A stretch of 64,000 nucleotides of DNA from Cenarchaeum sp. GTDB lineage: Archaea > Thermoproteota > Nitrososphaeria > Nitrososphaerales > Nitrosopumilaceae. This document shows, piece by piece, positions 581-53,137 of the stretch. Location of the stretch: contig CBDESU010000002.1 in the NCBI GenBank assembly GCA_965242695.1, positions 608,001-672,000 of the forward strand, read 5' to 3'. The first letter of the stretch is position 1; each line of letters begins with the position of its first letter. The notes under the pieces are model-generated. The model saw nothing but the letters and a program-made list of their open reading frames with translations. It had not been told where the DNA came from and ran no database searches. A program made the translations under genes and the position numbers.

Positions 581-3016
581 TCACTCCTCGTCCGCTGCGC
601 GGACGATACGCGCCATGCCGGGCAGGGTGCGGTCGTACGACGCAGGCAGGCACGACTTGGCCACCACGGCCATGGCCATCCCAAACTTGTCGTCGTAGTT
701 CTCGTCTCCGCGAAGGTCGCGATCGAGCAGCAGCGAGGCAACGTACACGCTAAAGCCGAACCGGTTCTTTGCCTCGGCGGGGTCGGCATCGGTGTGGCTT
801 TTGACGAACTCCACTAGGTAGCGGCAGTCCTCGTTGATCAGGATCGCATCGGACTTGACCTTGCTCACGCTCTCCTCGCCCCACTCCTGCGATTCCCACT
901 GGTCGCGCGCGACCCAGCGCAGCTCCGGCACGTTGACGCCCGCATCCTTGTCAGGATCGTCGCCGGGGCCGTCACCGCTGCCGCCGTCTGCCCCGGCCGT
1001 ATTGCCCTCTCTGGGGGCGCCATAGTACAGCTGCACAATGCACCGCAGCGGCATGGCGTTGGGCCGCGTCAGGGCAACGATCAGCTCGCCGGCATCTCCG
1101 AACTGCGCCCCCTTTGAGCGGATCTTGACGCGCACGACCCCGTCGTACGGCTCGTGGCAAGAGCCGTCGGATGCATCCGGAAACTGGGAAATCAGCTCGC
1201 CGGCATCTGCCTCGCGCGTCGTGTAGTCGTTGGGCGCATCCGTCTCCAAGTACACGTACGATGTGCCACCATCGTGGGGTATCTGCTTTCTAACAACGGC
1301 CGGCTCTTCGCCGCCAGGCGCCCCACGCACGCGCAGATACGTGGGCATGTAGCTTGGCATGAACTCGGGGGCGGGGCCGCCTCCGTCCCCGCCGCCTCCG
1401 TCCCCGCCGCCTCCGTCCCCGCCGCCTCCGTCCCCGCCGCCTCCGTCCCCGCCGCCTCCGTCCCCGCCGCCTTCTACTGCGGTGCCCCCCGCCTTGAGCA
1501 GCTCGGCTATGTAGGGGTTCCTGCGCACGGCGTTGACGATCGCCTGGTCCATGGACTCGTCGTGCACCGAGGCCGAGTCGTCTAGGCTTTTGTACTCGGC
1601 GTCCAAGGCACGCAGCTGGTCGTCGTGCTTGAGATCATGCATGATGGCCTCCTCGAGGGCCTTGTAGTCGGCGGACTTGCGGACGCGATCCCTCGATGCC
1701 ATGAATATCTTCGTCTTTGTCGTCGGTATGCTGGTCAAGTCCATGTGGACCATCATGTGCGGCGCGAGCGACTCTAGGCCCGTCTCAGACTTCAGCCTAG
1801 CCTCGCTGATCGTTGCGTGCGTCTGGCCGTTTTGCGTTAGCATAACAGCCTCCGATTTAGAGCGGAACCTGCCAATGGGCGCGCCCTTGCCCCGGCCGGG
1901 CCCTCCGCCGCCGGCATCGCCGTACGTCAGCGCGTGCCGGAACACGGTCACTTCTATCAGGTGCTTGCCAAACCCGCTCAGCTTGAACTGTATCTCCCGC
2001 CGCAGGCGGACATGGTCGCCGCCGTCCCGCACCACGCGGCCCCGGTTTCCGTGCATGACGGTTCCGGCGCGTCGCGTCCTGTCGCGGTTCCCAAAGCACG
2101 TGCGCGCATCGACCATCATGATGGGCATCATCGGCGCGTACAGCCTAGAGCTGATCTCGCGGTGCAACGATGACGTGATGGCCGACTTGCCTGGCAGATC
2201 GTACCCGAACATCTTGATGTAGCATCCGTCCTCTAGCTGCTCCCCGCCCGGCAACAGGGGCAGCGGGCCCGCGGGCGCGGTCGGCACCGTCCCGCCAGGC
2301 ACTGCCAGAAACTCGTACCATGTGGTCTTGTTTCCCTCGGGCACGTCCGGCTTTTCCCGGACAAGGGTAAAGCCCCACTCGCCCGAACCGCCCTCGCCCG
2401 CCGCGAGATCGGCGCATCGGCGCGAGACGATCAACTCATACCCCGACGCGCAGAACGGCAAGACGCCCGTCCCGCCCATGTTGTACTTGCCCTGGACGAA
2501 CCTGATCGCATTCTTGTTGCCCCGCTGCAGCGAAAGAAGCGTGCTCTCGAAGTCCTCCGGCTTCTGCCCCTCGCCCCTGTCGGCCACCACTATGTTTGGC
2601 CTCTCCTTGGGGCCGTCGGCGATGATCATGACATCGCGCGCCATCGCGTCGACACGCTCCGGGGGCATCGCGTCAAAGTCGCCCCCCTCTATGCCGAGGT
2701 ATTTCTCGACTGCCTTGCGCATCGTGCGCGGGGATCTAGGGCCTTCGGGATCGTCGCCGGCAAGCCGGCAGGCCTTGAGTAGCACGTGATCCATCGAGTT
2801 GACGGGCTTTTCGCACAGGGCGTTGACGGGGTCGGATTGCTGGCTGTGGACGATGCCGTAGTTGGCCTTGCTGCCGCCGAGGGGCCGCCACTCCATAGCC
2901 CTGAAGAATGGATCCCCGAGCATCTCGGTGACCTCCTTCTCGTCGTGCGCGCCAGCCAGTCGCATGAGCATCTCCCTGCTGGCGGAGGGATCCGGGCGGG
3001 GCGGGGCGGCGGTCAT
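581..3016 (-). CDS. GHKL (HSP90/gyrase B/MutL/MORC-like) ATPase domain protein, 811 aa
   Basis: Bergerat-fold motifs ALCEKPVNSMD (ExxxN), VADRGEGQ (DxGxG) and QGKYNMGGTG. Long C-terminal region of unknown function. Confidence 0.8.
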   Translation of the reverse strand: MTAAPPRPDPSASREMLMRLAGAHDEKEVTEMLGDPFFRAMEWRPLGGSKANYGIVHSQQSDPVNALCEKPVNSMDHVLLKACRLAGDDPEGPRSPRTMRKAVEKYLGIEGGDFDAMPPERVDAMARDVMIIADGPKERPNIVVADRGEGQKPEDFESTLLSLQRGNKNAIRFVQGKYNMGGTGVLPFCASGYELIVSRRCADLAAGEGGSGEWGFTLVREKPDVPEGNKTTWYEFLAVPGGTVPTAPAGPLPLLPGGEQLEDGCYIKMFGYDLPGKSAITSSLHREISSRLYAPMMPIMMVDARTCFGNRDRTRRAGTVMHGNRGRVVRDGGDHVRLRREIQFKLSGFGKHLIEVTVFRHALTYGDAGGGGPGRGKGAPIGRFRSKSEAVMLTQNGQTHATISEARLKSETGLESLAPHMMVHMDLTSIPTTKTKIFMASRDRVRKSADYKALEEAIMHDLKHDDQLRALDAEYKSLDDSASVHDESMDQAIVNAVRRNPYIAELLKAGGTAVEGGGDGGGGDGGGGDGGGGDGGGGDGGGGDGGGPAPEFMPSYMPTYLRVRGAPGGEEPAVVRKQIPHDGGTSYVYLETDAPNDYTTREADAGELISQFPDASDGSCHEPYDGVVRVKIRSKGAQFGDAGELIVALTRPNAMPLRCIVQLYYGAPREGNTAGADGGSGDGPGDDPDKDAGVNVPELRWVARDQWESQEWGEESVSKVKSDAILINEDCRYLVEFVKSHTDADPAEAKNRFGFSVYVASLLLDRDLRGDENYDDKFGMAMAVVAKSCLPASYDRTLPGMARIVRAADEE
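1376..1472. repeat. 15-bp tandem repeat (gccgcctccgtcccc) x ~6.5, encoding a (GGGGD)n linker in the GHKL protein
   Basis: Read directly from the sequence. Confidence 0.95.
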
Positions 3017-3600
3017 GACAGCATCACGCTAGGCCGCCCCCGGAAGTCTTCGTATGGGCAGCAACCGCCCCGCGCGGCTGCCACGCCGCAGGCAACACGA
3101 CCGGGCGGGCGAGTGTGCAGGGAGGGCATGCCCCTGCTCGGCACCGCCGGCATCGCCCACATGTATGCAAACTTGGTGCGGGGAATGTCCCGGGCGCGGG
3201 AGCCGGGGGAGGGCCACGGCGCAACAAGTGAGCCGCGAACACCGGCGGCGGCGGGCGCGGCGACGGAAACACCCCGCCCGCGCACACCGCGCGCGGGCCC
3301 CCGTAGCGCCGCACAAGTCAGGCCCGCACTCGGGCCGTATAATTTGTTTGGAACGCGACGCGCGGCGGCGGGCGCGGGCCTAGTGCGCGGGGCGGCAGGT
3401 TGAATGGCAGATACTGCGCGGCGGGCGCACTCTTGGGCCGCATGCGCGCCAGACGAGGGGCGCCAATGCCAAGGCCTTGCCGCTCCTATCATACCTAAAT
3501 ACAGCCGCGCCTCTGTTCGCCCGTGAAGTGTCAGCGCAAAAAGCCGCAACGTCCCGTCCCCGCCCCACCGGCGCCCCGCACTAGGAGGGGAACCTAGACC

Positions 3601-4557
3601 TTGCCGCCGCGCCTCACCGCCAAGGAGCGGGCCAGAAGGGAGAAGGAGCGCGCCGCGGCCCGCAAGGCCGAGACAGAGAGGCGCCGCAAGGAGGCGGCCG
3701 AGCGCAGGGCCAACCTAAAGGCCGACAAGGGCGAGGTGCGCGGGCTGCTCGCGGGCGCGACGGCCGACCAGATGCGCCGCTTCCTCGAAAAGGAGATGGC
3801 CCGCGACGCTACCGTCCTGGACCGCTTCTCGCACGCAACGGGCATCACGCGCGCGCGCCGCACCGACTACCGGCCGCGCATAGCGGCCCTCTTCAGCAAG
3901 GCCGACTCGCAGGTCGAGGGCAGGGGCGGGGCCGACAAGGTCGACTTTGGCGGGATCACAAAGGCCGCAAAGGGGTTCGAAAAGGCCGGCGACAGGGACG
4001 AGGCGGCGAGGATATACATCCAGCTGTGCGATACCATATCCTCGCACATCAAGACGTCGTTCGACTCGGGCGGCCACTACGAGGCGTGGTACGCGCGGGC
4101 GGTGCGCATGCTAGGCGAGTGCGCCCGAAAGATGGACGACGAAAGGGCTCGGCGCGCCGTCCTCTCAAAAATGATCGACGTCTGCGTAAAGAACGACCCC
4201 GAAAACTACGATGAAGAGTACGACGATGCGCTGCTCGGCGCGCTGGCCAACACCGCCGATGCCGAGTACGTCGTCGGCGCCGTCGGCAAGATGCTCCCAA
4301 AGCGGGCGGCGGGAGGGAAAAGGAGGGGGTGGTCCGCGTCCGAGCACCGCGCGATGACGATCCTCAACCTGTACGGCAAGGCGCTCGCCGCCGCCGGCGA
4401 CGGCGAGGGGCTCGCAAAGTTTGCCACCAAGCACGGCAACCGGACGATAATGCTCCGCAACATAAACGAAAACCTCAAGGCGGCAAAGGACATGAAGCGG
4501 GCCATGGACAGGGCCGTGGCAAAGATGATGGCCGGTAGAAGGCGGCTGCCGCCGTAG
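3601..4557 (+). CDS. Alpha-helical hypothetical protein, resembling the region downstream of the SWIM finger in COG4715-type proteins
   Basis: 318-aa ORF. Segment MRRFLEKEMARDATVLDRF...TDYRPRI...VDFGGI...GDRDEAARIY aligns by eye with the ORF at 5796-6944. Confidence 0.6.
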   Translation: MPPRLTAKERARREKERAAARKAETERRRKEAAERRANLKADKGEVRGLLAGATADQMRRFLEKEMARDATVLDRFSHATGITRARRTDYRPRIAALFSKADSQVEGRGGADKVDFGGITKAAKGFEKAGDRDEAARIYIQLCDTISSHIKTSFDSGGHYEAWYARAVRMLGECARKMDDERARRAVLSKMIDVCVKNDPENYDEEYDDALLGALANTADAEYVVGAVGKMLPKRAAGGKRRGWSASEHRAMTILNLYGKALAAAGDGEGLAKFATKHGNRTIMLRNINENLKAAKDMKRAMDRAVAKMMAGRRRLPP

Positions 4558-4569
4558 GGGGCGCGCACA

Positions 4570-5799
4570 ATGCGCCGATCCGGGCGGCGGGAGCGGACGG
4601 CCCGGCCCGACTCGTCCCGAGCCCCGCATCCGGAGGAGGGAGGCGAGGCTGGGAAGCCGGCAAGTCGGCAGCCGCTCATCGTCCTCGACGGCCACGCCGC
4701 GGTGCAGGCCGCCGTCGGGCGAAGATACTCGTACTCGGGGGACCGCCTCATGCCCGGCCGCTTCTACGCGTACGTGGACGCCAACGCGGGCAGGATTGCG
4801 CTTACCGCCGGCGCAAGAAGCGGGGCGGACAGCAGGATACGGAGCCTGGGAGGCCCGAGGACCAAAAAGCGCACCGTGCTCGCCGAGGAAATCGACGCAA
4901 TGGCATCGGCCGACGCGTCCGGCCACGAGGCGTGGCTCGGCAGCATAGAGGCGATGCAGCGCGGGGCGGCCGGCGATCCGCAGTCTAGGACCGCCAGGAG
5001 GTGGATGAGGCTCAGGGAGGACTCGCTGCCCAGGATCATCCTGGGCGAGGATCGGCCGTGGACAGAGTGCCACATAGCCAAGCTCATGCACCCCGAGGCG
5101 TACATGGTCAAGAACTTGGACGACAAGGGGAGGGCCTACATGCTCGGCTGGCTGTACGACCATGCGGCATCCGCGCGCCTTGTCGCCGCCGAGGCGGCAA
5201 GGGTCGCCGAGGGAAGCGGCGGGAGGGGGGCCATACTCGTCGCCATGAACCCCGACATACTCGCGTTCGCCGGCGAGCTGGAGGCGGCGACAGGCGGCAG
5301 GCTGCGCGTCCTAGATGCGGACCGCGTCAGCCTCGGTCCCACCAAGAAGCAGAGGGCCGAGAGGGCCGAGCGCCTGCGCAGGCTGGTTCCCCGCAGGGGA
5401 CAGCCCCTTACGACGGCCGAGCTGAAGAGGCGGCTCGGGACCAAGAGGCTGGGGCGGCTCACGGCGATCAAAGGAGAGAAAATTGTCGTCATAGTGCGGG
5501 AGCGTGACGACGGACTGACGTACGCGAGGAAGGGGTTCGTCATGTGCGTCGGCGAGGGCGGCGAAAACCAGCAGATGGACAGGAACAACAAGGCCATCCG
5601 CGACGCGGGGCCCGAGGGGCACGACATACTGCTCTTTGAGCGCACCGATGCGGACAGGCTGGCCTTCGTGTCCCGCCTCGGGTACGTCTCGCACAGGATC
5701 AGGCGGGTCGGCGAGGAGGGCAGCCCCTTCGGCGGCAGGATCATCGTGTTCAAGCTCAAGAGGGTCGGCGGGGCCGCGGAGGGCGGAGGTCGCGACTAG
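4570..5799 (+). CDS. Protein with a C-terminal SRA-like (ScoMcrA/HNH-associated type) putative modified-DNA-binding domain
   Basis: C-terminus VGEGGENQQMDRNNKAIRD...DILLFERT...LGYVSH...RIIVFKLKRV resembles the G.G..GDQ.M...N.AI...LF...IVF.L pattern of this SRA subtype. Confidence 0.6.
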   Translation: MRRSGRRERTARPDSSRAPHPEEGGEAGKPASRQPLIVLDGHAAVQAAVGRRYSYSGDRLMPGRFYAYVDANAGRIALTAGARSGADSRIRSLGGPRTKKRTVLAEEIDAMASADASGHEAWLGSIEAMQRGAAGDPQSRTARRWMRLREDSLPRIILGEDRPWTECHIAKLMHPEAYMVKNLDDKGRAYMLGWLYDHAASARLVAAEAARVAEGSGGRGAILVAMNPDILAFAGELEAATGGRLRVLDADRVSLGPTKKQRAERAERLRRLVPRRGQPLTTAELKRRLGTKRLGRLTAIKGEKIVVIVRERDDGLTYARKGFVMCVGEGGENQQMDRNNKAIRDAGPEGHDILLFERTDADRLAFVSRLGYVSHRIRRVGEEGSPFGGRIIVFKLKRVGGAAEGGGRD

Positions 5800-6944
5800 C
5801 CGCGGCTGCGGCTGCGGGCGGCCGTCGTGCCCATCCCGCCTAGCCGTTCCATGAGGGCCCTGCGCCGGCCGTACCTGCGGCGCAGCCCGCTTGCGTACCT
5901 CTCAAGCCTTGGCTCTTGGCCGGGTATGCTGCGCATCCTGCGAAGGCATTCGCCCACGATGCGGTAGTCGCCGCCGCTTTTGCCCTCCTTTATTGCCCGC
6001 TCCGCTCTTTTCTTGTATGCGGCAAACAGGCGCTCCCCGTGCCTCGGCGTGGCTAGGGCGTCGTGGTACCGCCTAGGCAGGGCGCCGCGCCAGCGGGCGG
6101 AAAGCACTGTATCTGCCAGCTCGTCGACCATGCCCTCCCCGTGCAGCACCGCCGCAAGCAGATCCTCCCTGCCCTCCAAATCCCTGATCAGCTCGCACCT
6201 GTCGGCGGCCCAGAGCGGCGATCGCCTCTTCAGCTCGTCAAGGTGTTCCTGCGAGCCGGTCAGGACGAACATGCGGCGCAGAGAGGCGCGGTAGTCGGCG
6301 CCCGGCCTCGGGCAGAGCAAGAGCGCAAGCGACTGGACTTCTTTCGACTTGGGAAACCTCCGCGCCCCGTAGGCTGCGATCCGCCCGGCCTTGCCCGGGT
6401 CCCCGCCATCCTGCAGCCGCCGCAGGTATTCTGCGCAGATGCCGGCGCTCTGCGTGTACGTAGAGGCCAGCTGCAGGTCGCGGGCAGCAACGGCGCCTGC
6501 CTTTGCGCACCTCTTGGCCCCCGTGTTGCACTCGTCAAAGATCTCTTTGAACTCGCTTTCCCACTCATTAAAGGATGGCATGTTCTCATATAGAACCTCG
6601 GAGAGGTGCCGGTACAGCCGCTCTGCCTCGAGCAGGTTGCCCCTGCGCTCTAGCGTGCGCGCCTCGTCGAGCACGGGAGACAGGTCGAGGTCGGTTTCGG
6701 CGAACGACTCGACGTCGTAGCCCCCCATCATCTGCGAGACCTCAAGGGCCCTGTCAAACATGTCTCGGATGCGCCGGCGGTGGTCGGTCTCGACACGCCC
6801 CCTTGCCGCCTTGAACCTGTCAATGACGTCCGGATCGAGGGCCGCCTCGGCCCTTAGAAATTCGCGCACCTCGCCATCGGTGACGGCATACGAGGCGTCG
6901 TCCGCCGCCGCTTCCGTCGCCGTTGCGGCCCTGCGCCCTGCCAC
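5796..6944 (-). CDS. Alpha-helical hypothetical protein, paralogue of 3601-4557 (COG4715 C-terminal-like)
   Basis: EVREFLRAEAALDPDVIDRF...TDHRRRI...LDLSPVL...GNLLEAERLY and a C-terminal LRRRYGRRRALMERL. Start inferred at GTG 6944; the longer ORF-track start overlaps DUF5131. Confidence 0.6.
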   Translation of the reverse strand: MAGRRAATATEAAADDASYAVTDGEVREFLRAEAALDPDVIDRFKAARGRVETDHRRRIRDMFDRALEVSQMMGGYDVESFAETDLDLSPVLDEARTLERRGNLLEAERLYRHLSEVLYENMPSFNEWESEFKEIFDECNTGAKRCAKAGAVAARDLQLASTYTQSAGICAEYLRRLQDGGDPGKAGRIAAYGARRFPKSKEVQSLALLLCPRPGADYRASLRRMFVLTGSQEHLDELKRRSPLWAADRCELIRDLEGREDLLAAVLHGEGMVDELADTVLSARWRGALPRRYHDALATPRHGERLFAAYKKRAERAIKEGKSGGDYRIVGECLRRMRSIPGQEPRLERYASGLRRRYGRRRALMERLGGMGTTAARSRSRG

Positions 6945-7030
6945 GCAGCCGGCCGCGCCAGCCCTTGCAAAAAGTGTTGGCGCCGGGCGGGCCGCGCTGC
7001 CGCGAATCCCGTCTTGGCACAGAACGGGCA

Positions 7031-7855
7031 CTAGGACGCAGCCACAAGGGACGCATCGGGCGCCGCGCGCCCCGGCGCCCCGATGTACGACTCCATGGCC
7101 CTCTTTTCTGCCGGCGGCGCCTCGGGCACGGCGGGGTACTCGCTGTATTCCGCGCCGTGCACCAGGCGGCCGCCCGAGTGCGGCCTCGGCCCGCCCCACT
7201 GCTTGAAGAACACGGCCGCGCCGTCCCGCCTGCACATGCCGATGAGCGAGTCGACCCACTCTGGGCTGACGGGCCGGCGGCGCGGGCCGCTCTCGCCGCC
7301 GATGATGGCCCAGTCTATGCCGCGCAGGTCCGTTGCGCGGGGAATCTCGCCGATCAGCGGCTCGAAGCTTACGAACCGGACGTGGCACCGTACGCGGCGC
7401 AGCTCGTCGATGCGGCCTGCCGCGCGCCCGTCCTCGACGCTCGTCCCCAGCCACACGTGCGGCGGCACCCGAAACCCGCAGAGCGCCTCGAACCTGGCCG
7501 CAAACTCGGCCATCCGCGCCGGCCGCTTCGTGAGCACCTGGTACGTGTGCCAGCGGGCGCGGATCATCGTGTCAAAGCACCTGCCGACAAAGGCGTCGTC
7601 GGCCCGCTCGTGGAACAGGTCGGACATGCTGTTGACGAATATGCGGCGTGGGCGGCGCCAGCGCAGCGGGCGGTCCGCCTCCGAGTCGTGCTGCGCGAAC
7701 TCAAAGCCGGCCGCGTACTTTGCGACCCCCATGGCCCGCAGCCGCGACGACAGCGCGTCGGCGTAGCAGTTGGCGCACCCGGCCGAGACCTTTGAGCAGC
7801 CCGTCGTCGGGTTCCACGTCGACTCGGTCCACTCGATGCCGGTCGCGTCGGCCAT
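7031..7855 (-). CDS. DUF5131 / phage Gp37-Gp68 family radical-SAM-like protein
   Basis: IEWTESTWNPTTGCSKVSAGCANCYA (CX6CX2C), IFVNSMSDLFH, LTKRP, SFEPL, IIGGESG and FFKQWGG. Start taken as ATG 7855. Confidence 0.92.
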   Translation of the reverse strand: MADATGIEWTESTWNPTTGCSKVSAGCANCYADALSSRLRAMGVAKYAAGFEFAQHDSEADRPLRWRRPRRIFVNSMSDLFHERADDAFVGRCFDTMIRARWHTYQVLTKRPARMAEFAARFEALCGFRVPPHVWLGTSVEDGRAAGRIDELRRVRCHVRFVSFEPLIGEIPRATDLRGIDWAIIGGESGPRRRPVSPEWVDSLIGMCRRDGAAVFFKQWGGPRPHSGGRLVHGAEYSEYPAVPEAPPAEKRAMESYIGAPGRAAPDASLVAAS

Positions 7856-7935
7856 GCGGCGCCGCCGCGGCGCGGGCCATAAAGGTGGCGGCGGGCGCGG
7901 CCGGATACCGAAAGCCTCCGCATCCCGGCGCAGAT

Positions 7936-8682
7936 CTATCCGGTGTAGGCGCACATGCCCATCCGCGGCGAGTTTACCACCGGCAGGTAGACCGACGGGT
8001 CGGCCGGCTCGCCCTCGTGCTCGTGCCTTTTAGAGCACCTCTTGCACATCAGCGGGCTCTGATCGCCCCACACGCACTCTGTGCAGACCAGCGTGGCGGC
8101 CGCCTTGCCGCACGCGCCGCAGTCGAGCTTTAGCTTGCCGTTCCTTGCGACCACCTCCGCTGTCCGCACCATGCCGGCTGCCGAGCACATTCCGGCCGGC
8201 TTGACGACCAGCTCCGTCGTCGTGCCAAAGTCGTACTCGTAGCTGACGGTGCCGCTCTTGCCAATTACCGCCATTGCGTTCTCCTCCATCGTCTTTGTGT
8301 CCGGGCCGTCGCTTTCCTCCTTCATCACCATGTACGAGGTGCCCCGCACCTGGAACGCGCTATAGTGGCCGCAGCACTCCACCCACGTGTGCCTGATCAG
8401 GGCGTCGATGTCCCTGAGCGTGGCCGTCTTGTGGGCGCGGACGTACAGCCAGTACGTAGCGGGAATGTCGTTGGTGATCGCCAAGAGGAATGCGTCCTTG
8501 TCGGCGGCCTTTGCAGCCCTGGCGCCCCTGGCGGCCTTGGTACCCTTGGCGGCCTTGGTACCCTTGGCGGCCTTGGCCTTGGACGCCCCGCCGCCGGAAA
8601 AGTGCGCAAGAAGGTGGGTGCGCATCTTTTTGTCCGTGCTTTCTTCCCCCTTGCAGATGGCGCACTTGCCGGCCGTTGCCAC
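7936..8682 (-). CDS. pRiA4b ORF-3-like (IS1096 passenger TnpR / MM3350-like) protein with Zn-finger motifs
   Basis: TLRDIDALIRHTWVECCGHYSAF, YEYDFGTTT, CxxC pairs and VVNSPRMGMCAYTG. Contains an 18-bp KAAKGT repeat. Start inferred at GTG 8682. Confidence 0.75.
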   Translation of the reverse strand: MATAGKCAICKGEESTDKKMRTHLLAHFSGGGASKAKAAKGTKAAKGTKAARGARAAKAADKDAFLLAITNDIPATYWLYVRAHKTATLRDIDALIRHTWVECCGHYSAFQVRGTSYMVMKEESDGPDTKTMEENAMAVIGKSGTVSYEYDFGTTTELVVKPAGMCSAAGMVRTAEVVARNGKLKLDCGACGKAAATLVCTECVWGDQSPLMCKRCSKRHEHEGEPADPSVYLPVVNSPRMGMCAYTG

Positions 8683-8808
8683 GGGGAGCCGCCCGAGGGC
8701 CGTGATAAATAGATGCGGTCTCGGATCCGGCGCACGCGCGGCGGAGGCCAACAGGCTGAGGGGCCGCGCGCCCGCCGCGGCGGCGGCGCCCCGCGGCGCC
8801 CGCAGGGC

Positions 8809-10713
8809 CTACCGCGCGCCCGCCGCGGCGGCGCCCATGTCCCCGCCCGCGGCCCCCGCAAGGAACTCGTCCGGGAACCGCAGCGACTCGAAGAACATCG
8901 GGATCAGCGAGAACGACAGCGGCGAGGAGGGGCCGAGCGCCATGAACGGGTACTTGCGCTCGCCGAGGCTGCTCTCGGGGTCGCGGAACTGCTGGTACAG
9001 CCGCAGCGCGGACGGGTTGCCGCCGATCAGGTCGCCTAGCGCGTCTAGCTCGGATCCCCACGCAAGGCCGTACCCGAAAAAGTACATGCGCAGCTGGCTG
9101 ACGATCTCCCTGTCCAGGCTCGCCAGGGTCTGGCTTACGAACATCCAGCCGAGGCCGTACTTGCGGGTCGTGCGGACCGCGTCGCGCAGCGTGGCCCTGA
9201 GCGGCGCAAGCTCCGCATCGCCGTCGTCGCCGCCGCCCCCGGCAGGCCCCCTGCCTAGCGGGCCGCGCGGGGCGAACCGGTGCGCCTCGTCCAGCACGAC
9301 GAGCGTGTTGAGGCCGCCGCCCCTCTCGGCGTACCTGCGCCGCGCGGCGGCGACGATCTCGTCGAGCGTGTGGTTGACGACGATCGCCCTCACCTCGTCG
9401 TTCCAGAACAGCTCCTCGGGCGCGCTCGTCTCGTCCAGGTCGAGCACGACGGCCGCGCCGTCCCCGCGGCCCATCTCGCCGACGACCTCGGAGACGAACC
9501 TCGTGCCAGACATCTCGGGCCGGCCAAACAGGAACAGCACGCCCTGCCACGCCGCAAAGTTGTCGTCGCTGTCGGCCGCCTCGAGCGACAGCAGGAGCCG
9601 CTCGCGCGTCTGCTGGCTTGCGTATATGCGGGTGGCCGCCGGATGCACCGTCTCGCCCGAGGCCGACCGCCGGGCGTGCCCGAGCCGGTTGATCACGTAC
9701 GAAAAGGCCTCGCGCGCGTGGGCCGACGAAAGCGCGATCCCGTCCGGATACCTGCCGTGCCCCGCGTCGTACCGGCCCGACAGTATGGTCCACACCTCCT
9801 CGGCCGCGTACCCCTGGTTCTCCTCTGCCTGCACGCCGATCCTGCGCAGCAGCCCAGACCTGACGAGCAGCCGCATGAACAGGTCCCTGTCCGGCCGCAG
9901 CAGCAGGCCGTGGAGGCTGTGCACGCGCACGTCCCTGCCCATGCCCCGCAGGTGCGGCGCAAGGGCGGGATCCCGGACCGTCCGGGCAAACTCGCCCTGC
10001 GGGTCGAGCACGACGAACGACATGCCGCGGTGCCGCATGTACGACAGCAGGATCATCTTTGCCAGGACGGACTTGCCCGAGCCGGTCTTGCCGAATATTC
10101 CGACGTGCGAGGCCTCGCCCGTGCCCCCCTCCTCGGGCGGGCCAAAGTGGCGGAACCAGCTCGGCATTGCGACTGCGCCGCCGGCCCCCGGAACGCGCCC
10201 GATCGACACGGTCGCCCCCGCGCACGGCGCCGTCAGGGCGGCGAGCGCCCCGTCGGACGCGATCCTGACCGGCGTGCCGGTCGGGGGGACCGTCCCCATC
10301 GAGCCCTGCCGTATGCTCCCCTGCCCGTCCTCGACAAAGACGGCGCTGACGAGCATCTCGGCCGCGTGGACGTCGTGGCCGCCCGTTATGGGGTCGACCG
10401 TGCCGTGCTACCGTATGAGCCCCTTGAGGGTTGGGTCGCGCATGAAGGGGTTCTCGAGGACGACCTCGGTGACCTGGCCGAGCGCGTACGCAGTGCGACC
10501 GTCCTGCCCGAAGCGAAGAATAGCAAGGGCGCCGGCGAGCGAGCGGGCCGCCTTTGAGCCGAGCACGTCGACGGACAGGCGCGACGTGCTCGACGGCGAG
10601 CCGACGACGCCGATCTGCTCGCCCGCGTCGACGGCCTCTTGCGGCGCGGTGGCCGGGGCGGAGGGGCCGCTTCCGCCGTCTTCGACGCCGTTGCCGTCTG
10701 CCACAGGCCTCAC
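8809..10713 (-). pseudogene. herA: HerA-family ATPase/helicase (HAS barrel + P-loop) interrupted by one in-frame TAG at 10408-10410
   Basis: ORFs 10408-10791 (IGVVGSPSST...ALGQVTEVVLEN, HAS-like) and 8809-10356 (GKTGSGKS, VLDPQGEF, VVLDEAH, RKYGLG, SQ) are in the same frame: ...KGLIR*HGTVDPITGGHDVH.... The GTG start overlaps the nurA stop (GTGA). Confidence 0.8.
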
Positions 10714-12017
10714 GTCCTGTACCCGCGCGCGGCTATGTAAAGCTCGGCTATGCCCATGCCGTCGCCGGCTGCCGGCTGCCCCGGCCCCCACGTGCGGGAC
10801 ATGGCCGAGACCGCGATCCCGCGCATGGCAGGCAGTGCCCGCGGCAGGCTCTTGGCCATGCGGTCTGCCATGTACACCGGATACGGCTCCATCAGGCCCG
10901 GCCCCGCCGACTGCAGGCGGACCGCCTCTAGGAGGGCGCCTGTGCGATCCCTGTCGTCGCCGGCGCCGGCATCGCCGGCGCCGATCCCTCCCAGCTCCAG
11001 GCGGATCGCCGGCGAGTAGCTGTGCGGCCTATAGTACAGCACGCGGACGGCGTTGACGGCATCTGCTATCGCCTCTGCCAACGATCTTGTCCGCGGCCCT
11101 CCCGGAATGCGGCCGGACAGCAGGCGGCCGCCGGACGCACTATACGCGGCCCGCCCCGGCGCCGGGCGCCCGGGGGCAAGGGGCCCCACGTACTCGCCCG
11201 GCTCCAGCACTAGCGAGAGCAGGCCCCTGTCGTCGAGGTTCGGCAGGCCGAGCCGCTCGCATATCTCGCTGCGCTGCGAGTACTTTGCGACCGCGGCGAT
11301 CGTCTGCCCCGGCGGCCCAGAGGGGGCGTCGTCCTTGCCGGTGCCCGGCGCGAGCATGCGAAGGTATCCCGACAGCGTCCGCTCGATCGGGCCGAACCGG
11401 ACCCGGCCGCCATCCTCGTCTTCGACGCCGCCGCCGGCCTCGCCCTCCTCCAGGTAGCGGGCCAGCGACGGCGGGCCTCCGCCGCGCTGCCTCAGCGCAA
11501 TGTCAAGGGAGATTGCCGGCGTGGCCAGCGAGCCGTCGACAAACACGACGTCGTGCGGGGCAAGGGATGCGAGCTGCACCTCCATGGCCGACATGACGGC
11601 CCTGGCCGAGACCGGGTTCGCATCGTCGTGGGCCAGGCTCTCGACGTGCACAAAGTGGCGCGGCCTCGGCCACAGGCGCGCCGGCGGGCCGCCGGCGGGC
11701 CGCCGGGCCCCCAGGCCCTCGACCGCCACGGCCCCCATCGCCACTATGTCGGTTGCAAGCATGCGCTCGGCGCAGTGCGAGCCGTCGACTCCGGCCGTAG
11801 AGGGAGGCGGCTCGGGCCTCGGCAGGTCCGAGTCGCGCCCGAGCAGAGGCGCGAGCGACTCGCGGACCGAGCTGCGCATCGACCTCATCGAGGAAATGTC
11901 GTCGGCCAGGCCGCCGGCAAGCCTGCGCGACGAGCCGAGCATCTCGCGGACCATCGCCTGCGGCAGGTCGGCGAACGGCTCGGCGGCGGGGGAGGGCCCC
12001 GCATCGTAAAGGCTCAC
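10710..12017 (-). CDS. nurA: NurA-domain nuclease
   Basis: AGVDGS, VFVDGSL, IAAVAK and EPYPVYMADRMAK motifs; directly upstream of herA. Start inferred at GTG 12017. Confidence 0.85.
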   Translation of the reverse strand: MSLYDAGPSPAAEPFADLPQAMVREMLGSSRRLAGGLADDISSMRSMRSSVRESLAPLLGRDSDLPRPEPPPSTAGVDGSHCAERMLATDIVAMGAVAVEGLGARRPAGGPPARLWPRPRHFVHVESLAHDDANPVSARAVMSAMEVQLASLAPHDVVFVDGSLATPAISLDIALRQRGGGPPSLARYLEEGEAGGGVEDEDGGRVRFGPIERTLSGYLRMLAPGTGKDDAPSGPPGQTIAAVAKYSQRSEICERLGLPNLDDRGLLSLVLEPGEYVGPLAPGRPAPGRAAYSASGGRLLSGRIPGGPRTRSLAEAIADAVNAVRVLYYRPHSYSPAIRLELGGIGAGDAGAGDDRDRTGALLEAVRLQSAGPGLMEPYPVYMADRMAKSLPRALPAMRGIAVSAMSRTWGPGQPAAGDGMGIAELYIAARGYRT

Positions 12018-12231
12018 GGGGCACCATTCTGAGCGCGCAAGATATGCGTTGCGATCGGGGGGAGGGGAGGGCCCAGGCCGGCCCCGGGAAGCCCCGCATC
12101 GTCCCCGGCACACGGCCCCAACCGATAAAGCCGGCCGGGGGGCGCGGCGCGGCGTGTCCGGAAAGGGGCGGGGCAGGCAGGGCGCGGATCGGGGCGGCGG
12201 CGCAGAGGCGCCGGCCAGGCCCGTGGAAAAG

Positions 12232-12966
12232 ATGCTAAAGAGGGCCGTGCGCCTGTCCAAGTCCGGGCGGCACGTCAAGGCCGGGCGGGTGTGCAACGAC
12301 ATTCTCGAGGCGGATCCCGGCAACGTAGGGGCCATGGTAGTCAAGGCCATCGAGGCCATGGCGTCGAACGACCCAAAAAATGCCGCGCGGTGGTACGACA
12401 GGGCGCTGGAGGCGGATCCCGGCGATGTCGTGTGCCTGGCGGGCAAGGCGATGGCGCTCAACATGCGGGGCAGGCACAGGTCTGCCATGAAGTGCTGCAA
12501 CGAGGCGCTGAGGACGGATCCAGACGACGTTGATGCCAACAACGAAAAGGGCCTCGCGCTCAAGAACATGGGCAGGTTCGACAGGGCCCTGCAGTGCTAC
12601 GATCGAGCGCTCGCGGCCAGCCCCGGCAATACGGTGGTCATGTCGAACAAGGGCGTGGCGCTGATGATGAAGGGGCTGCACGAAGAGGCCGTTGCCTGCT
12701 ACGACAGGGCCCTAGCAGGCAATCGCCGCGATGCCGCCGCCGTCTTCAACAAGGGCGTGGCGCTCGGCCACCTTGGCAGGCGCGAAGAGTCGCTCCGGCA
12801 CTTTGGCAGGGCCATGGCCATCAACCCCGCCCTCATAGGTAAAAATATAGGCGTCGTCCTGGACCATATGGGCGCATCCGAGGAGGAGTGGAAAATCGTG
12901 ATGGGCGGGGGCCGCGCCGGTGGCCGGAAGCACGGCGGCCGGAAGATGCTTGGAAGGAAGAGATAG
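12232..12966 (+). CDS. TPR-repeat protein
   Basis: Repeated YDRAL..DP...NKG.AL..G 34-aa units. Confidence 0.9.
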   Translation: MLKRAVRLSKSGRHVKAGRVCNDILEADPGNVGAMVVKAIEAMASNDPKNAARWYDRALEADPGDVVCLAGKAMALNMRGRHRSAMKCCNEALRTDPDDVDANNEKGLALKNMGRFDRALQCYDRALAASPGNTVVMSNKGVALMMKGLHEEAVACYDRALAGNRRDAAAVFNKGVALGHLGRREESLRHFGRAMAINPALIGKNIGVVLDHMGASEEEWKIVMGGGRAGGRKHGGRKMLGRKR

Positions 12967-13296
12967 GCGGCGCCCGGCCGTGCCGCCGTGCGCGCAAGAC
13001 TCCTCGCTTTGCGGCGGGCAGGATCGCCTTCGCCGCGGGCGCCGCCGGCATCGCGTCGTTGCTGCCGCCTCCGCCGCCGCAGGCAGGCGCAAGCATGCGA
13101 AGGTGCCCCTGCAGCGTCCGCTAGATCGGGCCGAGCCGGGCGCGGCGCGGCATCCTAGGCAGGCCCTACAGCATCCCCTGCCCCCAATCCCAACCGATAA
13201 AGCCTATGGGTGGGGCGGCGCGGTGTGTTTTGGAGGGGCCGAGGCAGGCGGGAGGCGGCGCAGCGCAGCGCGGTGCCGGCCAAGTCTGTGGAAAAG

Positions 13297-14061
13297 ATGC
13301 TAAAGAGGGCCGCGCACCTGTCCAAGTCCGGGCGGCACGCCGAGGCCGGCGCAATGTGCGACAGGATTCTCGAGGCAGACCCCGGCAGCGCAGTGGCCAT
13401 GGAGATCAAGGCGGGGACGGCGGTGTCCTTGGGCGACCCAAAAAACGCCGTGCGGTGGTACGACAGGGCGCTGAAGGCCGACCCCGGCAACGTCGACTAC
13501 ATGGCGGCCAAGGCGGCGATCCTCAACTTGCGGGGCAAGCACAAGTCGGCCATGAAGTGCTGCAACGAGGCGCTGAATATCGATCCCGACAACGAGTATG
13601 CCGCAGGCGAAAAGGGCCTTGCGTTCAAGAACATGGGCAAGTTTGACGATGCCCTGGAGTGGTACGATCGCGTTCTCGCCGCCAACCCGGACAACATTGT
13701 GGTCGTGGCGAACAAGGGCGTGGCGCTGATGATGAAGGGGATGCACGAAGAGGCCATCGAGCACTACGACAAGGCCCTAGCGGCCGATCCCCTCGATGCC
13801 GCCGCCGTCTTCAACAAGGGCGTCGCCCTCGGGCACCTTGGGAGGCGCGAAGAGTCGCTCCGGCACCTTGGCCGGGCCATGTCCATCGGCCCCGCCGGCA
13901 TACCAGACATGGTGCGCCGCGCCCTAGGCCAGATGGGCGCATCCAAGGAGGAGCGGGAAAGCGTAATGAGCGCGGGCCTCGAGGGGGTCGGGATAGTGGG
14001 CGGAAGGAAGATGCGCGGAAGGAAGATGCGCGGAAGGAAGATGCGCGGAAGGAAGAGATAG
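13297..14061 (+). CDS. TPR-repeat protein (tandem paralogue of 12232-12966)
   Basis: Same N-terminus (MLKRA..LSKSGRH) and TPR units. The C-terminal GRKMR repeats come from a 15-bp unit. Confidence 0.9.
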   Translation: MLKRAAHLSKSGRHAEAGAMCDRILEADPGSAVAMEIKAGTAVSLGDPKNAVRWYDRALKADPGNVDYMAAKAAILNLRGKHKSAMKCCNEALNIDPDNEYAAGEKGLAFKNMGKFDDALEWYDRVLAANPDNIVVVANKGVALMMKGMHEEAIEHYDKALAADPLDAAAVFNKGVALGHLGRREESLRHLGRAMSIGPAGIPDMVRRALGQMGASKEERESVMSAGLEGVGIVGGRKMRGRKMRGRKMRGRKR

Positions 14062-14279
14062 GCGGCGCGCCGCGGGGGCGCAGCCGGCGCCCGGACGTGC
14101 CGCGCGAGGTAGCCGGCGGCGCCCGGACGTGCCGCTGTGCGTGCTGGGTGTCGCGTTTTGGTGTGGGCAAGATGCACGCTCCACGTTGCCTGCGTCACAA
14201 GACCAGTGTGATCAGTCTCAACCATACGGCCGCATATGAATAAATGTCACCCGTGTGCAGGCACGCCGTGTCGAATACC

Positions 14280-15458
14280 ATGACCATGAAGATCAACCCG
14301 GCTGTCCTTAGATGGGTAATGGACAATGAGGGCTGGGAGGTCGACGAGCTTGCGGCGGAGACGGGCCTGGATCCCGAGCGCATGCGCAGATGGACCACCG
14401 CAGAGTCGTATGTCAGCCTGCGTGACCTGAAAAAGATGTCGTCTAGGTTCAGGCGTCCCATGTCGGTGCTTCTCATGGCAGAAGCACCGACTACCACGGT
14501 TCCCAAGTACAGACGGCAGGGCGGGGATGCTATGGGGACTAGGCTATCCCGGCCGGTTCTCGAGGTGATCCGGAAGGCGCGCTTCGTCCAAGACAACGCT
14601 GCCGAGCTGCTTGACGCAATGAACAAGGATGCCAAGCCGAACGTTCGCAGGGCCACACTAGACCAGAGCCCCGAGTCGGTAGCGGCAGAAAACGCCGCCG
14701 CCCTCGGAATAGAGCCCCCCCGGCGCACGGGCCAAGGAGAGGAGAGGGACAGGGCAAGGTACAGGATGATCAGGGGGAAAATCGAGTCGCGCAACGTGTT
14801 TACCATGCAAGAGAAGATCCCCGAGGACGGAATGGCAGGGTTTGCGCTCGTGGACACCAAACCTGCGATCATACTAGTCAATGGAGGCGATCCTTTACGG
14901 CGTCGAATATTTACAATTCTCCACGAATACGCTCATGTCCTTTTGGACGATGGCAGCGTCTGTCCTACAAGCGGTTCTCCGGCAGACAACGCAGGAGGCG
15001 AGATCAAAATTGAGCGTTGGTGTGATAGATTTGCAGGTGCCGTGCTCATGCCCATGGACAGGTTCAAAGCTGAGCTCAAGAATGCACATAAAAAAGCAGG
15101 CGGCGATCCCCTTCAGGCAGTAACTGATCTGTCGGATAGATTTTGCGTAAGTAGAACGGCGGCCATGGTACGCTCTGTGCACGCAATTGACGACGCTAGC
15201 CTTAGAACGAAGTATTCTCGCTGCTATGGGGCGCTAAGCCAAAAATCGGAGGAAAAAAGCAAAGCAGAGAATGACAAAAACAAGCCTGTTCCCGTGAAGC
15301 AAGCCGTTAGCTGCCTAGCTAAGAAAGGGCATTTATATGCCAACCTAGTCGCAGCTGCATCCAAATCGGGAGCCATCACGACGAGTACAGCCCTCGACTA
15401 TCTCGAGATCAGGCTCAAAAATCTTGATGATCTCAAAATGCGGTGCGGAGGCGACTAG
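14280..15458 (+). CDS. XRE-type HTH + ImmA/IrrE (M78) zinc metallopeptidase
   Basis: N-terminal INPAVLRW..HTH, then RRIFTILHEYAH (HExxH) and ERWCDRFAGAVLMP. An alternative start is at 14244. Confidence 0.92.
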   Translation: MTMKINPAVLRWVMDNEGWEVDELAAETGLDPERMRRWTTAESYVSLRDLKKMSSRFRRPMSVLLMAEAPTTTVPKYRRQGGDAMGTRLSRPVLEVIRKARFVQDNAAELLDAMNKDAKPNVRRATLDQSPESVAAENAAALGIEPPRRTGQGEERDRARYRMIRGKIESRNVFTMQEKIPEDGMAGFALVDTKPAIILVNGGDPLRRRIFTILHEYAHVLLDDGSVCPTSGSPADNAGGEIKIERWCDRFAGAVLMPMDRFKAELKNAHKKAGGDPLQAVTDLSDRFCVSRTAAMVRSVHAIDDASLRTKYSRCYGALSQKSEEKSKAENDKNKPVPVKQAVSCLAKKGHLYANLVAAASKSGAITTSTALDYLEIRLKNLDDLKMRCGGD

Positions 15459-15460
15459 CG

Positions 15461-15934
15461 TTGCAAGACTATGTCGCAGATACAAGCTCATTAATCAACC
15501 TACAACAATACTATCCCAGACCTGCATTTTCAGCACTTTGGGATAATGTTGGATCTCTAATAAGGGAGGAGAGGATGGTGGCTCCAATGCAAGTTTTAAA
15601 GGAATTGGAATCTAAAGACGACGATCTTCTAGGGTGGGCTAGGCAACACAAAACAATGTTTCAAAAAAATAAAAACGTTGATATAAAATTTGCAACTATG
15701 TTGGCAAATAAATATAGTACTATGAGAAATAAAAACGTAGCTGTGGAAAGGGCAGATCGCTATGTCATCGCACTAGCTCACCGTCTAACGCACGGAAGAT
15801 TGGGTGGTAAATGGGTAGTAGTGACAGAAGAGGGAGACGGGCTAAGCCAAATTCCCCAGATTTCAAAATCGTATGAAGTAGATTACTGCAAACTAGTAGA
15901 TGTCATAGTAGAGGAAGGGTGGTCATTTAGGTAG
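15461..15934 (+). CDS. DUF4411 family PIN-domain protein (putative toxin)
   Basis: YVADTSSLI, Y....FSALW, VLKEL, ADRYVIALA, VVTEE and IP motifs. It starts immediately after the peptidase gene and is markedly AT-rich. Confidence 0.88.
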   Translation: MQDYVADTSSLINLQQYYPRPAFSALWDNVGSLIREERMVAPMQVLKELESKDDDLLGWARQHKTMFQKNKNVDIKFATMLANKYSTMRNKNVAVERADRYVIALAHRLTHGRLGGKWVVVTEEGDGLSQIPQISKSYEVDYCKLVDVIVEEGWSFR

Positions 15935-31847: not shown

Positions 31848-32041
31848 CTTGCGCCTTGTGACGGGGCCTCTCGACACGGCCCGCGGGCGAAGGGGGCACA
31901 CTATAAGCGTGGCGGCGCGGGCCGTCCCGCGGATGCGCCGGCGCCGTCCCGCCGGCAAGTGCATCGGCGCCGGTTGCCAGGCGCCCCAAATTTGGCAGCC
32001 CGGCATACCAATATAAGGCGCGGCCGTATCGGCGCGCGCAC

Positions 32042-32194
32042 ATGGCAAAGTACGACGGGCTGCTCGGCCAGCCCGTGCTAGAGGTCGAGGAGCCCGACAA
32101 GGAGGGCGGCATCACCGTAATCTTCAAGGACAACAGGTTCCTGTTCATAAAGGCCGCAGACGGAAAGGTCGAGACCGTCTCGATCCCGGAGTGA
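32042..32194 (+). CDS. Small hypothetical protein (50 aa), absent from the ORF track
   Basis: MAKYDGLLGQPVLEVEEPDKEGGITVIFKDNRFLFIKAADGKVETVSIPE*. TATA atataag about 30 bp upstream. Confidence 0.8.
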   Translation: MAKYDGLLGQPVLEVEEPDKEGGITVIFKDNRFLFIKAADGKVETVSIPE

Positions 32195-32200
32195 GTGCGG

Positions 32201-32368
32201 ATGGACAAGTTTGATCCCGTCAGGATGCAGGACCTGGTGCGCGTCGACGACCCCGACGCCGACGGCGGCGTGACCCTGGCCTTCAAGGGGGGCCAGACTA
32301 TGAAGATCATCGTCGGAAGCGACGGCAAGCTTGCCTGCACGGTGTCCGCGGGGGACGCCGCATCCTAG
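32201..32368 (+). CDS. Small hypothetical protein (55 aa), paralogue of 32042-32194
   Basis: MDKFDPVRMQDLVRVDDPDADGGVTLAFKGGQTMKIIVGSDGKLACTVSAGDAAS*. Confidence 0.75.
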   Translation: MDKFDPVRMQDLVRVDDPDADGGVTLAFKGGQTMKIIVGSDGKLACTVSAGDAAS

Positions 32369-32886
32369 CCGCCGGCTGCTCCTCCGGGCCGGTCAGCGGC
32401 GGCGTGCCGCTCATAGTACTCTACGGCCCGCTCCTGCTCGTCGCTCTGTATCGAGCCAGGCCGGCGCTCGCGGACGGTCCGAATGGCGTCTGCCGCCGAC
32501 ATGCCCTCGTGCCGCACCAGATAGCACGCCAGGATGGTGCCCGCCCTGCCAAGGCCGGCCGCGCAGTGGACCATGGCCGGCGCGCCCCTCTCGACATGCT
32601 CGCGGATGAACGCCACGGCCGCATCCGTCCCCTCCACCGTGGGCGCGGTCAGGTCGATGGTAGGCACGTGCAGGTAGTCTACGCCCTCGACCCAGCCGGC
32701 GGGCAGCGGGTCCTCGGTCATTGTGACGACGGCCTTGACGCCGCGCTCGCGCAGCCACTCGACCTCGCCGGCCGACATGGGGCGGCCCGAGCCGGCGAGG
32801 CTGCCGTCTATGAGCCATGAAAAATTCGTCGGGCGGCCGGTCACGGCGCCGTGCACCCTCCTCCACGCGTTGCCCGGAGCGCTCAA
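32365..32886 (-). CDS. Dual-specificity / protein-tyrosine phosphatase
   Basis: VHCAAGLGRAG (HCX5R) and VRERRPGSIQ...Q. Confidence 0.93.
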   Translation of the reverse strand: MSAPGNAWRRVHGAVTGRPTNFSWLIDGSLAGSGRPMSAGEVEWLRERGVKAVVTMTEDPLPAGWVEGVDYLHVPTIDLTAPTVEGTDAAVAFIREHVERGAPAMVHCAAGLGRAGTILACYLVRHEGMSAADAIRTVRERRPGSIQSDEQERAVEYYERHAAADRPGGAAGG

Positions 32887-32889
32887 CTG

Positions 32890-34506: not shown

Positions 34507-34529
34507 ACAGGGCGTGCGAGACGCATACC

Positions 34530-34540
34530 GTATATATATG
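34530..34540. promoter_or_regulatory. TATA element between the divergent gmrSD-like gene and amrS
   Basis: tatatatat (34531-34539) sits about 20-30 bp from both start codons (34506 and 34560). Confidence 0.55.
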
Positions 34541-34559
34541 AAGCGAAAAGGCAGGGGGC

Positions 34560-49711: not shown

Positions 49712-49925
49712 CGCGGCGAGTGCATTATCGCGTCTGCTGCGCGCCAGCGCGAACAAGAATGCAACCACACCACCGGCACAGCGTGACATCACCGTTCCTG
49801 CCCTCACCCCATCCATGCGAGGACCAAGAGATGGCCAGCAAGGCGTGCAGGCATGGCCCACACCACGGCGGCACGGCTAGGTGCCGCCTACGAGGGTTTT
49901 TGTAAGGACGGGTCGGCGGCAGGTC

Positions 49926-53132: not shown

Positions 53133-53137
53133 TCGCC

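Follow-up and report, generated by a model that had tools for sequence, protein, structure and literature searches.

The stretch of DNA analysed here (the window, 64,000 nucleotides (nt), G000:C2:608001-672000, where G000 is the genome under study; positions are those of the window) contains, between 581 and 15934, a group of conflict-type genes that includes a NurA-like nuclease gene followed by a HerA-like ATPase gene. We consider that this region is a mosaic of independent conflict-type modules, located in a larger flexible and horizontally assembled part of the genome, and not a single system (probability about 0.68). NurA-HerA is the only widely conserved pair of the region, and in this strain its HerA gene carries a premature stop codon. 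An earlier note on this DNA had listed the gene types present, all of which were recovered in place, and had remarked on the lack of housekeeping genes over about 15 kb, which we can confirm for the whole of 581-15934. The features are as follows (aa, amino acids; ORF, open reading frame):

581..3016, minus strand: A, GHKL ATPase by motifs and fold, 811 aa; Pfam HATPase_c_3 below cut-off
3601..4557, plus strand: B, helical protein, 318 aa; N-terminal domain paralogous to D
4570..5799, plus strand: C, predicted fusion of a PIN-like N-terminal and an SRA-like C-terminal part, 409 aa; fold matches
5796..6944, minus strand: D, helical protein, ~382 aa; start set from homologues, the gene being shorter than its ORF
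7031..7855, minus strand: E, DUF5131 (Gp37/Gp68-like); Pfam E 7e-83
7936..8682, minus strand: F, pRiA4b ORF-3-like, 248 aa; homologues with PF07929
8809..10704, minus strand: HerA-like (DUF87) ATPase, ~631 codons with one premature stop; Pfam DUF87 42.7 bits
10408..10410, minus strand: in-frame TAG within HerA; CAG (Gln) in relatives
10710..12017, minus strand: NurA-like nuclease, ~435 aa; PF09376 17.4 bits, adjacency to HerA
12049..12966, plus strand: TPR protein 1; Pfam scan
13210..14061, plus strand: TPR protein 2, tandem paralogue of TPR protein 1; Pfam scan
14244..15458, plus strand: K, helix-turn-helix (HTH) and ImmA/IrrE (M78) peptidase; Pfam, PADLOC capP
15443..15934, plus strand: L, DUF4411 PIN-like protein, overlapping the end of K; Pfam

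Genes were picked with a filter on GC content at third codon positions (GC3) and scanned against Pfam, PADLOC, NCBIfam and PHROGs; for the region itself the Pfam and PADLOC scan comprised 12 ORFs.

Distribution and growth of the island

A DNA search for the block in 31 genomes from the genus, family and order found it syntenic only in the sister genome G004, at 77-83% nucleotide identity. The two complete congeners (G001 and G003, 99% completeness) gave short matches only, and G002 has only A, located amid AAA_13, another HATPase_c_3 protein and an MrfA-like helicase. The distribution of the individual genes is equally patchy: HerA appeared in 17 of 201 genomes of the order and, apart from G000, in none of 40 of its own family, C in 4 of 301 genomes of the class and A in 2 of 401 genomes of the phylum. 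Presence and absence in close relatives, one of the checks that had been proposed, therefore describe a sporadic block that is neither core nor syntenic across the family sample.

To the right of the block, the sugar epimerases at 16.8-19.5 kb have counterparts in G004 only, and from about window position 22,200 onwards the core is again syntenic with all four congeners. Two 799-aa ORFs with IS66-family transposase domains were found in the window (19746-22145 and 46362-48761); the first of these lies where the accessory region ends on the right, shortly ahead of the core synteny. To the left, 20 kb of flanking sequence (L001) had no match in G001 or G003 and scattered matches only in G004. 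This flank carries a number of conflict genes, namely an IetA-like AAA ATPase (PADLOC E 1e-81), a HipA-like kinase, Mrr_N, DUF488, Prok-E2_E and a second ImmA/IrrE gene; PADLOC detected no IetS partner for the IetA-like gene and had no match for 20 further ORFs of flank and window. The genes that follow the end of synteny in G001 and G003 map in G000 to C2:833,600-851,000, some 200 kb away, which places the region at a large rearrangement or insertion point. The synteny with G004 only, the absence from G001 and G003 and the conflict genes of the flank support the view, already expressed in the earlier note, of a defence island, or more broadly a defence and accessory island.

A way to see how such an island is assembled is to compare the two genomes that share it. 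G000 and G004 have in common the order TPR / nurA-herA-F-D / B / A, with amino acid identities of 90% for HerA, 77% for B, 73% for A, 72% for NurA, 67% for D and 58% for F. The genes E and C set the two genomes apart as exact indels: between F and D, ~935 bp with the DUF5131 gene E in G000 correspond to 10 bp in G004, and between D and B, ~1268 bp with C correspond to 111 bp; no direct repeats were visible by eye at the junctions of either insertion. For its part, G004 (locus L008, G004:C2) has between B and A a gene for an 851-aa protein combining DnaJ with a DinG/XPD-like helicase (L008 13771-16326, PADLOC typeIV_DinG E 6e-47) and after A an HNH protein (L008 18673-19965, PtuB-like E 2e-10), neither of which is present in G000, and a single TPR gene at this place, where the second TPR gene and the ImmA-PIN pair K-L are missing. 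G000 has multiple copies of E, F, K, L and B-like genes. The DUF5131, PIN-SRA, DnaJ-DinG helicase and ImmA-PIN genes have been slotted singly into gaps of a block conserved in two species, and the island grows as single genes insert into intergenic spaces. Defence islands of ammonia-oxidising archaea are poorly charted, and this one illustrates how they get built.

The NurA-HerA pair and its relatives

NurA ends 5 nt before the start of HerA. The HerA product belongs to the DUF87 family (PF01935, 42.7 bits against a cut-off of 23.2), with a Walker A motif (GKTGSGKS) and a Walker B motif (DEAHR, within VLDEAHR in HerA) that are invariant across 16 homologues, and it falls far short of the NCBIfam equivalogs of canonical double-strand break (DSB) repair (NF040937, 23.3 bits against 800; NF040819, 19.8 against 970). 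NurA scores 17.4 bits with PF09376, for which the cut-off is 21, and DGS motifs could be recognised by eye.

HerA has at least 2880 homologues at E<=1e-10 among 8000 candidates scored. Its alignment led to 62 loci on contigs of one genome per species, from many bacterial and archaeal phyla. Using tblastn, HerA was located in 57 of the 62, with NurA (22-36% identity) directly upstream in 49 of these 57, and at E<=1e-4 the 62 loci contained no match to A, B, C, D, E or F. We compared 78 flanking ORFs with Pfam (neighbours on the same strand plus two encoded on the other one, not including those of L041 and L054 on the opposite strand; several contigs were truncated). In 36 of the 49 NurA-HerA loci (L010-L064), again from many bacterial and archaeal phyla, the pair adjoins DruA (PF14236/DUF4338), which lies upstream of NurA or, in several archaea (L010, L011, L014, L039), downstream of HerA. 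These DruA genes match PADLOC DruA1 (PDLC00002, E 3e-123 and 2e-73), and no PADLOC model matches the NurA of the triad. PMC10853773 describes DUF4338 as a GNAT-like acetyltransferase domain. Other neighbours of the triad are often defence-like (Schlafen/AlbA_2 with radical SAM, NERD-helicase, AAA_15/21, kinase-ORC/Cdc6). In IMG/VR viral contigs, relatives of HerA and of A are rare (three and four loci, respectively). Literature searches for NurA with HerA and DruA, DUF4338 with HerA, and Druantia with NurA retrieved no paper describing the triad. The pair of G000 does not form one: the genome has no PF14236 match, and tblastn with three DruA proteins gave a best E of 0.34.

The earlier note had recognised the pair correctly and had overlooked that HerA is cut by an in-frame stop. 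A 515-aa ORF (8809-10356) and an upstream ORF (10411 to ~10704) lie in one frame and are split by a lone TAG at 10408-10410. A relative of 99% identity (P0001) and G004 both read GLIRQHG here, with CAG at the position of the TAG. Logan contigs from three runs belonging to two studies (X1, X2 and X4) have the TAG, and this assembly may itself derive from these data; a contig of a fourth run, X6, which comes from another study and a ~1% divergent strain, has CAG. The TAG is a population polymorphism, not a one-off assembly error. As a codon, TAG terminates 576 of 1044 confident long ORFs in G000, more than any other stop codon, and so is an ordinary stop codon of this genome. Pyrrolysine insertion or read-through was considered and rejected, since this is an AmoA-encoding archaeon, TAG is its commonest stop and the relatives have Gln at this position. 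With CAG in the relatives and TAG an ordinary stop, HerA is truncated or split in this strain, and this, together with the missing DruA, makes the NurA-HerA module probably inactive here. A polymorphic nonsense codon in HerA suggests that loss of the module is under way in one strain of the symbiont population.

F, D, B and the DUF5131 gene

F scores 20 bits with the pRiA4b ORF-3 model (PF07929, cut-off 26.6), and many homologues with 35-40% identity carry this domain and share with F the core motifs WVECCGH and YEYDFGTTT. Cys/His clusters are conserved at both ends of the protein, as an N-terminal CxxC...H motif and a C-terminal Cys cluster. Of 5039 candidates scored, at least 1305 proved to be relatives at E<=0.001. 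We examined 80 metagenomic loci around F-like genes, 36 of which span 6 kb or more, and found no HerA, NurA, DruA, D, B or SWIM-type relative of D at E<=1e-4; F-like genes have no common neighbour, the commonest neighbour cluster occurring in only 6 of the 80. The literature retrieved on pRiA4b comprised plasmid and Agrobacterium papers only.

The N-terminal ~130 aa of B and D are related (27% identity, pairwise E 3e-10), and the N-terminal domain of B matches at least seven further places in G000. In passing, B-like and F-like matches with identical scores and a constant offset were seen at G000:C2:~1652700-1662000 and G000:C1:~6300-15500, which suggests an overlap or duplication of assembled sequence between the end of C2 and the start of C1. 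Among 1.84 billion representatives only 45 proteins are related to D at E<=0.001, and the distant members of this set are ~550 aa long, with an N-terminal SWIM zinc finger and TPR-like repeats, and align to the C-terminal half of D. Even with E values of up to 10, Pfam gave no match for D (or for C). The ESM Atlas had pointed to DUF6880 and SWIM for D, which was only partly confirmed: distant relatives have SWIM and one a faint DUF6880, and D itself has neither. A conserved T-rich motif (CTTTTTGC) is located ~30 nt upstream of the start of D in both species (window 6950-7000; L008 11425-11445); it may be a promoter element from which D is transcribed on its own. A predicted complex of D and F scored 0.00 in a run without controls and provides no evidence either way.

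E matches the PADLOC components PDC-M41B (5e-92) and PDC-M30B (5e-88). Their partners PDC-M41A and PDC-M30A were not detected among the 12 ORFs, so neither candidate system (PDC-M41, PDC-M30) is complete here. Three further DUF5131 copies exist in G000, with different neighbours, and this, added to the exact insertion relative to G004, puts the DUF5131 gene outside any conserved unit.

Overall, conservation of neighbourhood, also among the checks that had been proposed, holds for NurA-HerA and fails for F and for A, whose homologue loci (four on viral contigs, and G679) have no neighbour in common.

The GHKL ATPase, the putative PIN-SRA fusion and the K-L pair

A reaches 18.9 bits with Pfam HATPase_c_3 (cut-off 25). 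In 21 homologues the N-box (E69, N73, D76), G1 (D146, G148, G150) and G2 (G176, G181, G182, G184) residues are invariant, and the AlphaFold model, with a predicted local distance difference test (pLDDT) score of 74, yields 389 matches in the PDB at E<=0.001, with the GyrB/ParE 43K fragment, Hsp90 and Topo VI-B at the top. Motifs and predicted fold together place A in the GHKL ATPase superfamily. The ATPase is followed by a transducer-like domain and then, across a Gly/Asp-rich linker (residues ~483-550), by C-terminal domains that are beta-rich and helical. PDB sequence matches to A involved Gly-rich linkers of engineered proteins and were discarded as low-complexity artefacts. The family includes at least 715 homologues at E<=1e-5 among 8000 candidates scored, typically of 760 aa, none with a precomputed Pfam domain and, in the ESM Atlas clusters, annotated as "hypothetical protein". 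A GHKL ATPase family of this size without a Pfam model is a lead in itself.

C had been described earlier as an SRA-like protein; the SRA-like fold is indeed found, in a protein that appears to be a PIN-SRA fusion. In its model (pLDDT 71, from an alignment of six rows) the C-terminal domain resembles the SRA folds of ScoMcrA (5zmn, E 6.8e-4), MspJI, SUVH5, UHRF1, AspBHI and TagI, with E between 7e-4 and 9e-2 and probabilities of 0.89-1.0 for the first four and no Pfam match. The N-terminal half resembles VapC-type PIN domains (E ~1e-2, probability 1.0), with two candidate Asp residues in the alignment. A PDB sequence search gave no significant match for C. A full-length paralogue is located at C2:770870-772003. 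Judging from these modelled folds, C looks like a modification-dependent (type IV-like) nuclease.

K (Peptidase_M78, 46.5 bits against 22; PADLOC capP, E 6e-21) and L (DUF4411, 74.8 against 23.5) overlap by 16 nt and have the make-up of an ImmA/IrrE-DUF4411 pair. They lie in a 53% GC patch, and on account of this low GC we take this toxin-antitoxin-like pair to be recently acquired. K matches 10 further places in G000 and L three further loci, and the TPR queries gave 582 tblastn matches genome-wide; large expansions of repeat proteins and of toxin-antitoxin-like pairs are a feature of this genome. A 1070-aa NHL-repeat protein is encoded at 59431-62643 of the window.

Alternative explanations and possible mechanism

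Several points weigh against the mosaic. The order NurA-HerA-F-D-B-A kept in two species is compatible with a functional unit. No gene completes a named defence system with the PADLOC models, as the earlier remark that no named system could be matched had anticipated, so that the label "defence" is one of guilt by association. Even as two polypeptides, the split HerA could remain functional. Finally, NurA-HerA also sits without DruA in conserved, housekeeping-like contexts, both at four Dehalococcoidia loci, where it lies between ilvD-like and RraA-like genes, and in a sister family within the same order, where 15 of 40 genomes have the pair; it may thus serve repair instead of defence. Taken further, this would make NurA-HerA an end-resection or repair module and the rest mobile-element cargo together with symbiosis-related gene expansion, in a flexible region that is not a defence island. 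Characterised HerA-NurA acts in DNA end resection (PMC12977600), and the TPR matches and both IS66-family ORFs of the window fit the notion of cargo. We regard this explanation as quite unlikely, because most related pairs carry DruA, a Druantia component, and have many defence-type neighbours, the pair is sporadic in its own family and broken in this strain, and the nearby IetA-like, ImmA-PIN and PIN-SRA genes are of conflict type.

A different possibility is that NurA, HerA, F and D form a lineage-specific four-gene system in which F and D replace DruA as sensor or regulator and DUF5131 is a later insertion. The four genes have the same strand and order in G000 and G004, F and D lie downstream of HerA where the four archaeal loci mentioned above carry DruA, which is missing from G000, and, as a weak hint, a HerA relative (P0005) and an F relative (P0123) come from ENA contigs of one and the same length, 3880 bp. 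On the other hand, F and D adjoin NurA-HerA in these two sister species only, 0 of 80 F-like loci have HerA, NurA or D-like genes and 0 of 62 HerA loci have F or D, the T-rich motif suggests that D has its own promoter, and an insertion between F and D is tolerated, all of which makes such a system unlikely, if still worth bearing in mind. The same doubt applies to the broader proposal that the pair belongs to a widespread, unnamed DruA-NurA-HerA immunity module, with DruA exchanged in this genus for the zinc protein F and the SWIM-related D; if true, the sensor or regulator would have been replaced in modular fashion while the effector, nuclease and motor, stayed conserved. The earlier note had gone one gene further, reading nurA-herA-pRiA4b-DUF5131-helical protein as perhaps one unnamed system. 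The genes share a strand, the gaps are short and DUF5131 does match components of PADLOC candidate systems. This five-gene version does not withstand the comparison, and we consider it very improbable: DUF5131 is exactly absent from the otherwise syntenic block of G004, its other copies have different neighbours, the PDC-M30A and PDC-M41A partners are lacking among the 12 ORFs, and the linkage of F and D is confined to two species.

We therefore return to the mosaic of independent modules. What the genes are, the indels, their distributions and the counts of linkage are direct results of the analysis; that they serve defence, and how they would act, is inferred. If the pair works like the HerA-NurA complexes already characterised, HerA would form a hexamer that feeds DNA into the NurA nuclease; loaded on DNA ends, the complex would consume ATP to degrade the duplex. 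During a conflict, linear invading DNA would be destroyed, with DruA or another accessory controlling the firing. F and D would be the only candidates in this genus for such control and, being linked to the pair in two species, may be lineage-specific accessories or mere neighbours. The premature stop in G000 probably disables the HerA motor. C could read modified DNA and cut it, K-L could be a PIN toxin module under the control of a protease and A a stand-alone ATP-driven switch; E is a solitary multicopy gene, and the TPR genes are part of the genome-wide expansion.

Host genome and other observations

The host appears to be a sponge-associated ammonia-oxidising archaeon. G000 measures 3.89 Mb in two contigs with 67-68% GC. 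It encodes an archaeal AmoA (E 2e-118) despite ~68% GC, the window includes the archaeal markers PCNA, TFIIB and TFS, and five runs labelled sponge metagenome contain 55-74% of the words sampled from a 1-kb fragment of the region; together these results make an ammonia-oxidising archaeon plausible despite the high GC. No RNA run containing the region piece was found among the public runs listed. Most genomes of the family are ~1.6 Mb; within the genus there are small complete genomes (G001, 2.0 Mb; G003, 1.8 Mb) and large ones (G000, G002 and G004).

Elsewhere in the window, a low-GC patch (53-59%) at 49881-54004 encodes a 1083-aa UvrD-helicase/PD-(D/E)xK fusion (PADLOC GajB-like, E 6e-83) and, after it, a candidate single-gene defence protein (PDC-S34, E 4e-50); it looks like another defence islet. 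The deepest GC dip (48-54%) is found at 32000-35000 and adjoins a dual-specificity phosphatase gene (32365-32886) and a radical SAM gene (34560-35621). No tRNA was found, and no Rfam family in window positions 1-23000.

Comparison with known systems

The MORC-like GHKL proteins, GyrB, Hsp90 and Topo VI-B share with A the Bergerat-fold motifs, invariant in its family, and a transducer-like second domain. A differs from all of them in its C-terminal 250 aa, in having no Pfam family and in lacking a conserved partner gene; its top Foldseek ranks are GyrB, ParE, Hsp90 and Topo VI-B, not MORC. K-L recalls the ImmA/IrrE-DUF4411 modules and the CapP regulators, as K combines HTH and M78 peptidase and is followed by the overlapping DUF4411 gene. 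It departs from CapP of the cyclic oligonucleotide-based antiphage signalling systems (CBASS) in being multicopy and in having no CBASS genes among the PADLOC-scanned ORFs of the region or left flank. The C-terminal domain of C resembles the SRA-like readers of the type IV restriction enzymes ScoMcrA, MspJI, TagI and AspBHI, and in a relative (L104) the same domain is fused to what, by eye only, reads as an Mrr-type nuclease motif. Their nuclease parts are HNH or PD-(D/E)xK, whereas that of C is PIN-like in a model of moderate quality (pLDDT 71); PIN-SRA may therefore be a new kind of modification-dependent nuclease and is a second lead from this region.

Like the archaeal HerA-NurA end-resection complex of the Mre11-Rad50-HerA-NurA operon, the pair described here has a DUF87/HerA ATPase with Walker A and B motifs directly after a NurA-like gene. 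Unlike it, the HerA is far below the equivalog cut-offs and interrupted, the NurA does not reach the Pfam cut-off, the pair occurs only sporadically and as an accessory in its lineage, and no Metallophos or SMC/Rad50 domain occurs among the 12 ORFs of the region (Mre11 and Rad50 were not searched genome-wide). With SIR2-HerA and DUF4297-HerA it has in common a HerA-like ATPase next to a predicted nuclease-type effector in an island of defence genes, and weak PADLOC HerA matches (E 1e-10 to 1e-11); the partner here is NurA, for which PADLOC has no matching model. Druantia type I (DruA-E) includes DruE, a large helicase. None of the Pfam-scanned flanking ORFs of the related loci resembled a large helicase, the DruB-E models not having been applied there, and neither the window nor G000 has DruA or, among the PADLOC-scanned proteins, a match to the DruB-E models. 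Relatives of this NurA-HerA do adjoin DUF4338 genes of the DruA1 type, and a NurA-HerA subfamily that travels with the DruA of Druantia in many phyla is a candidate new defence system.

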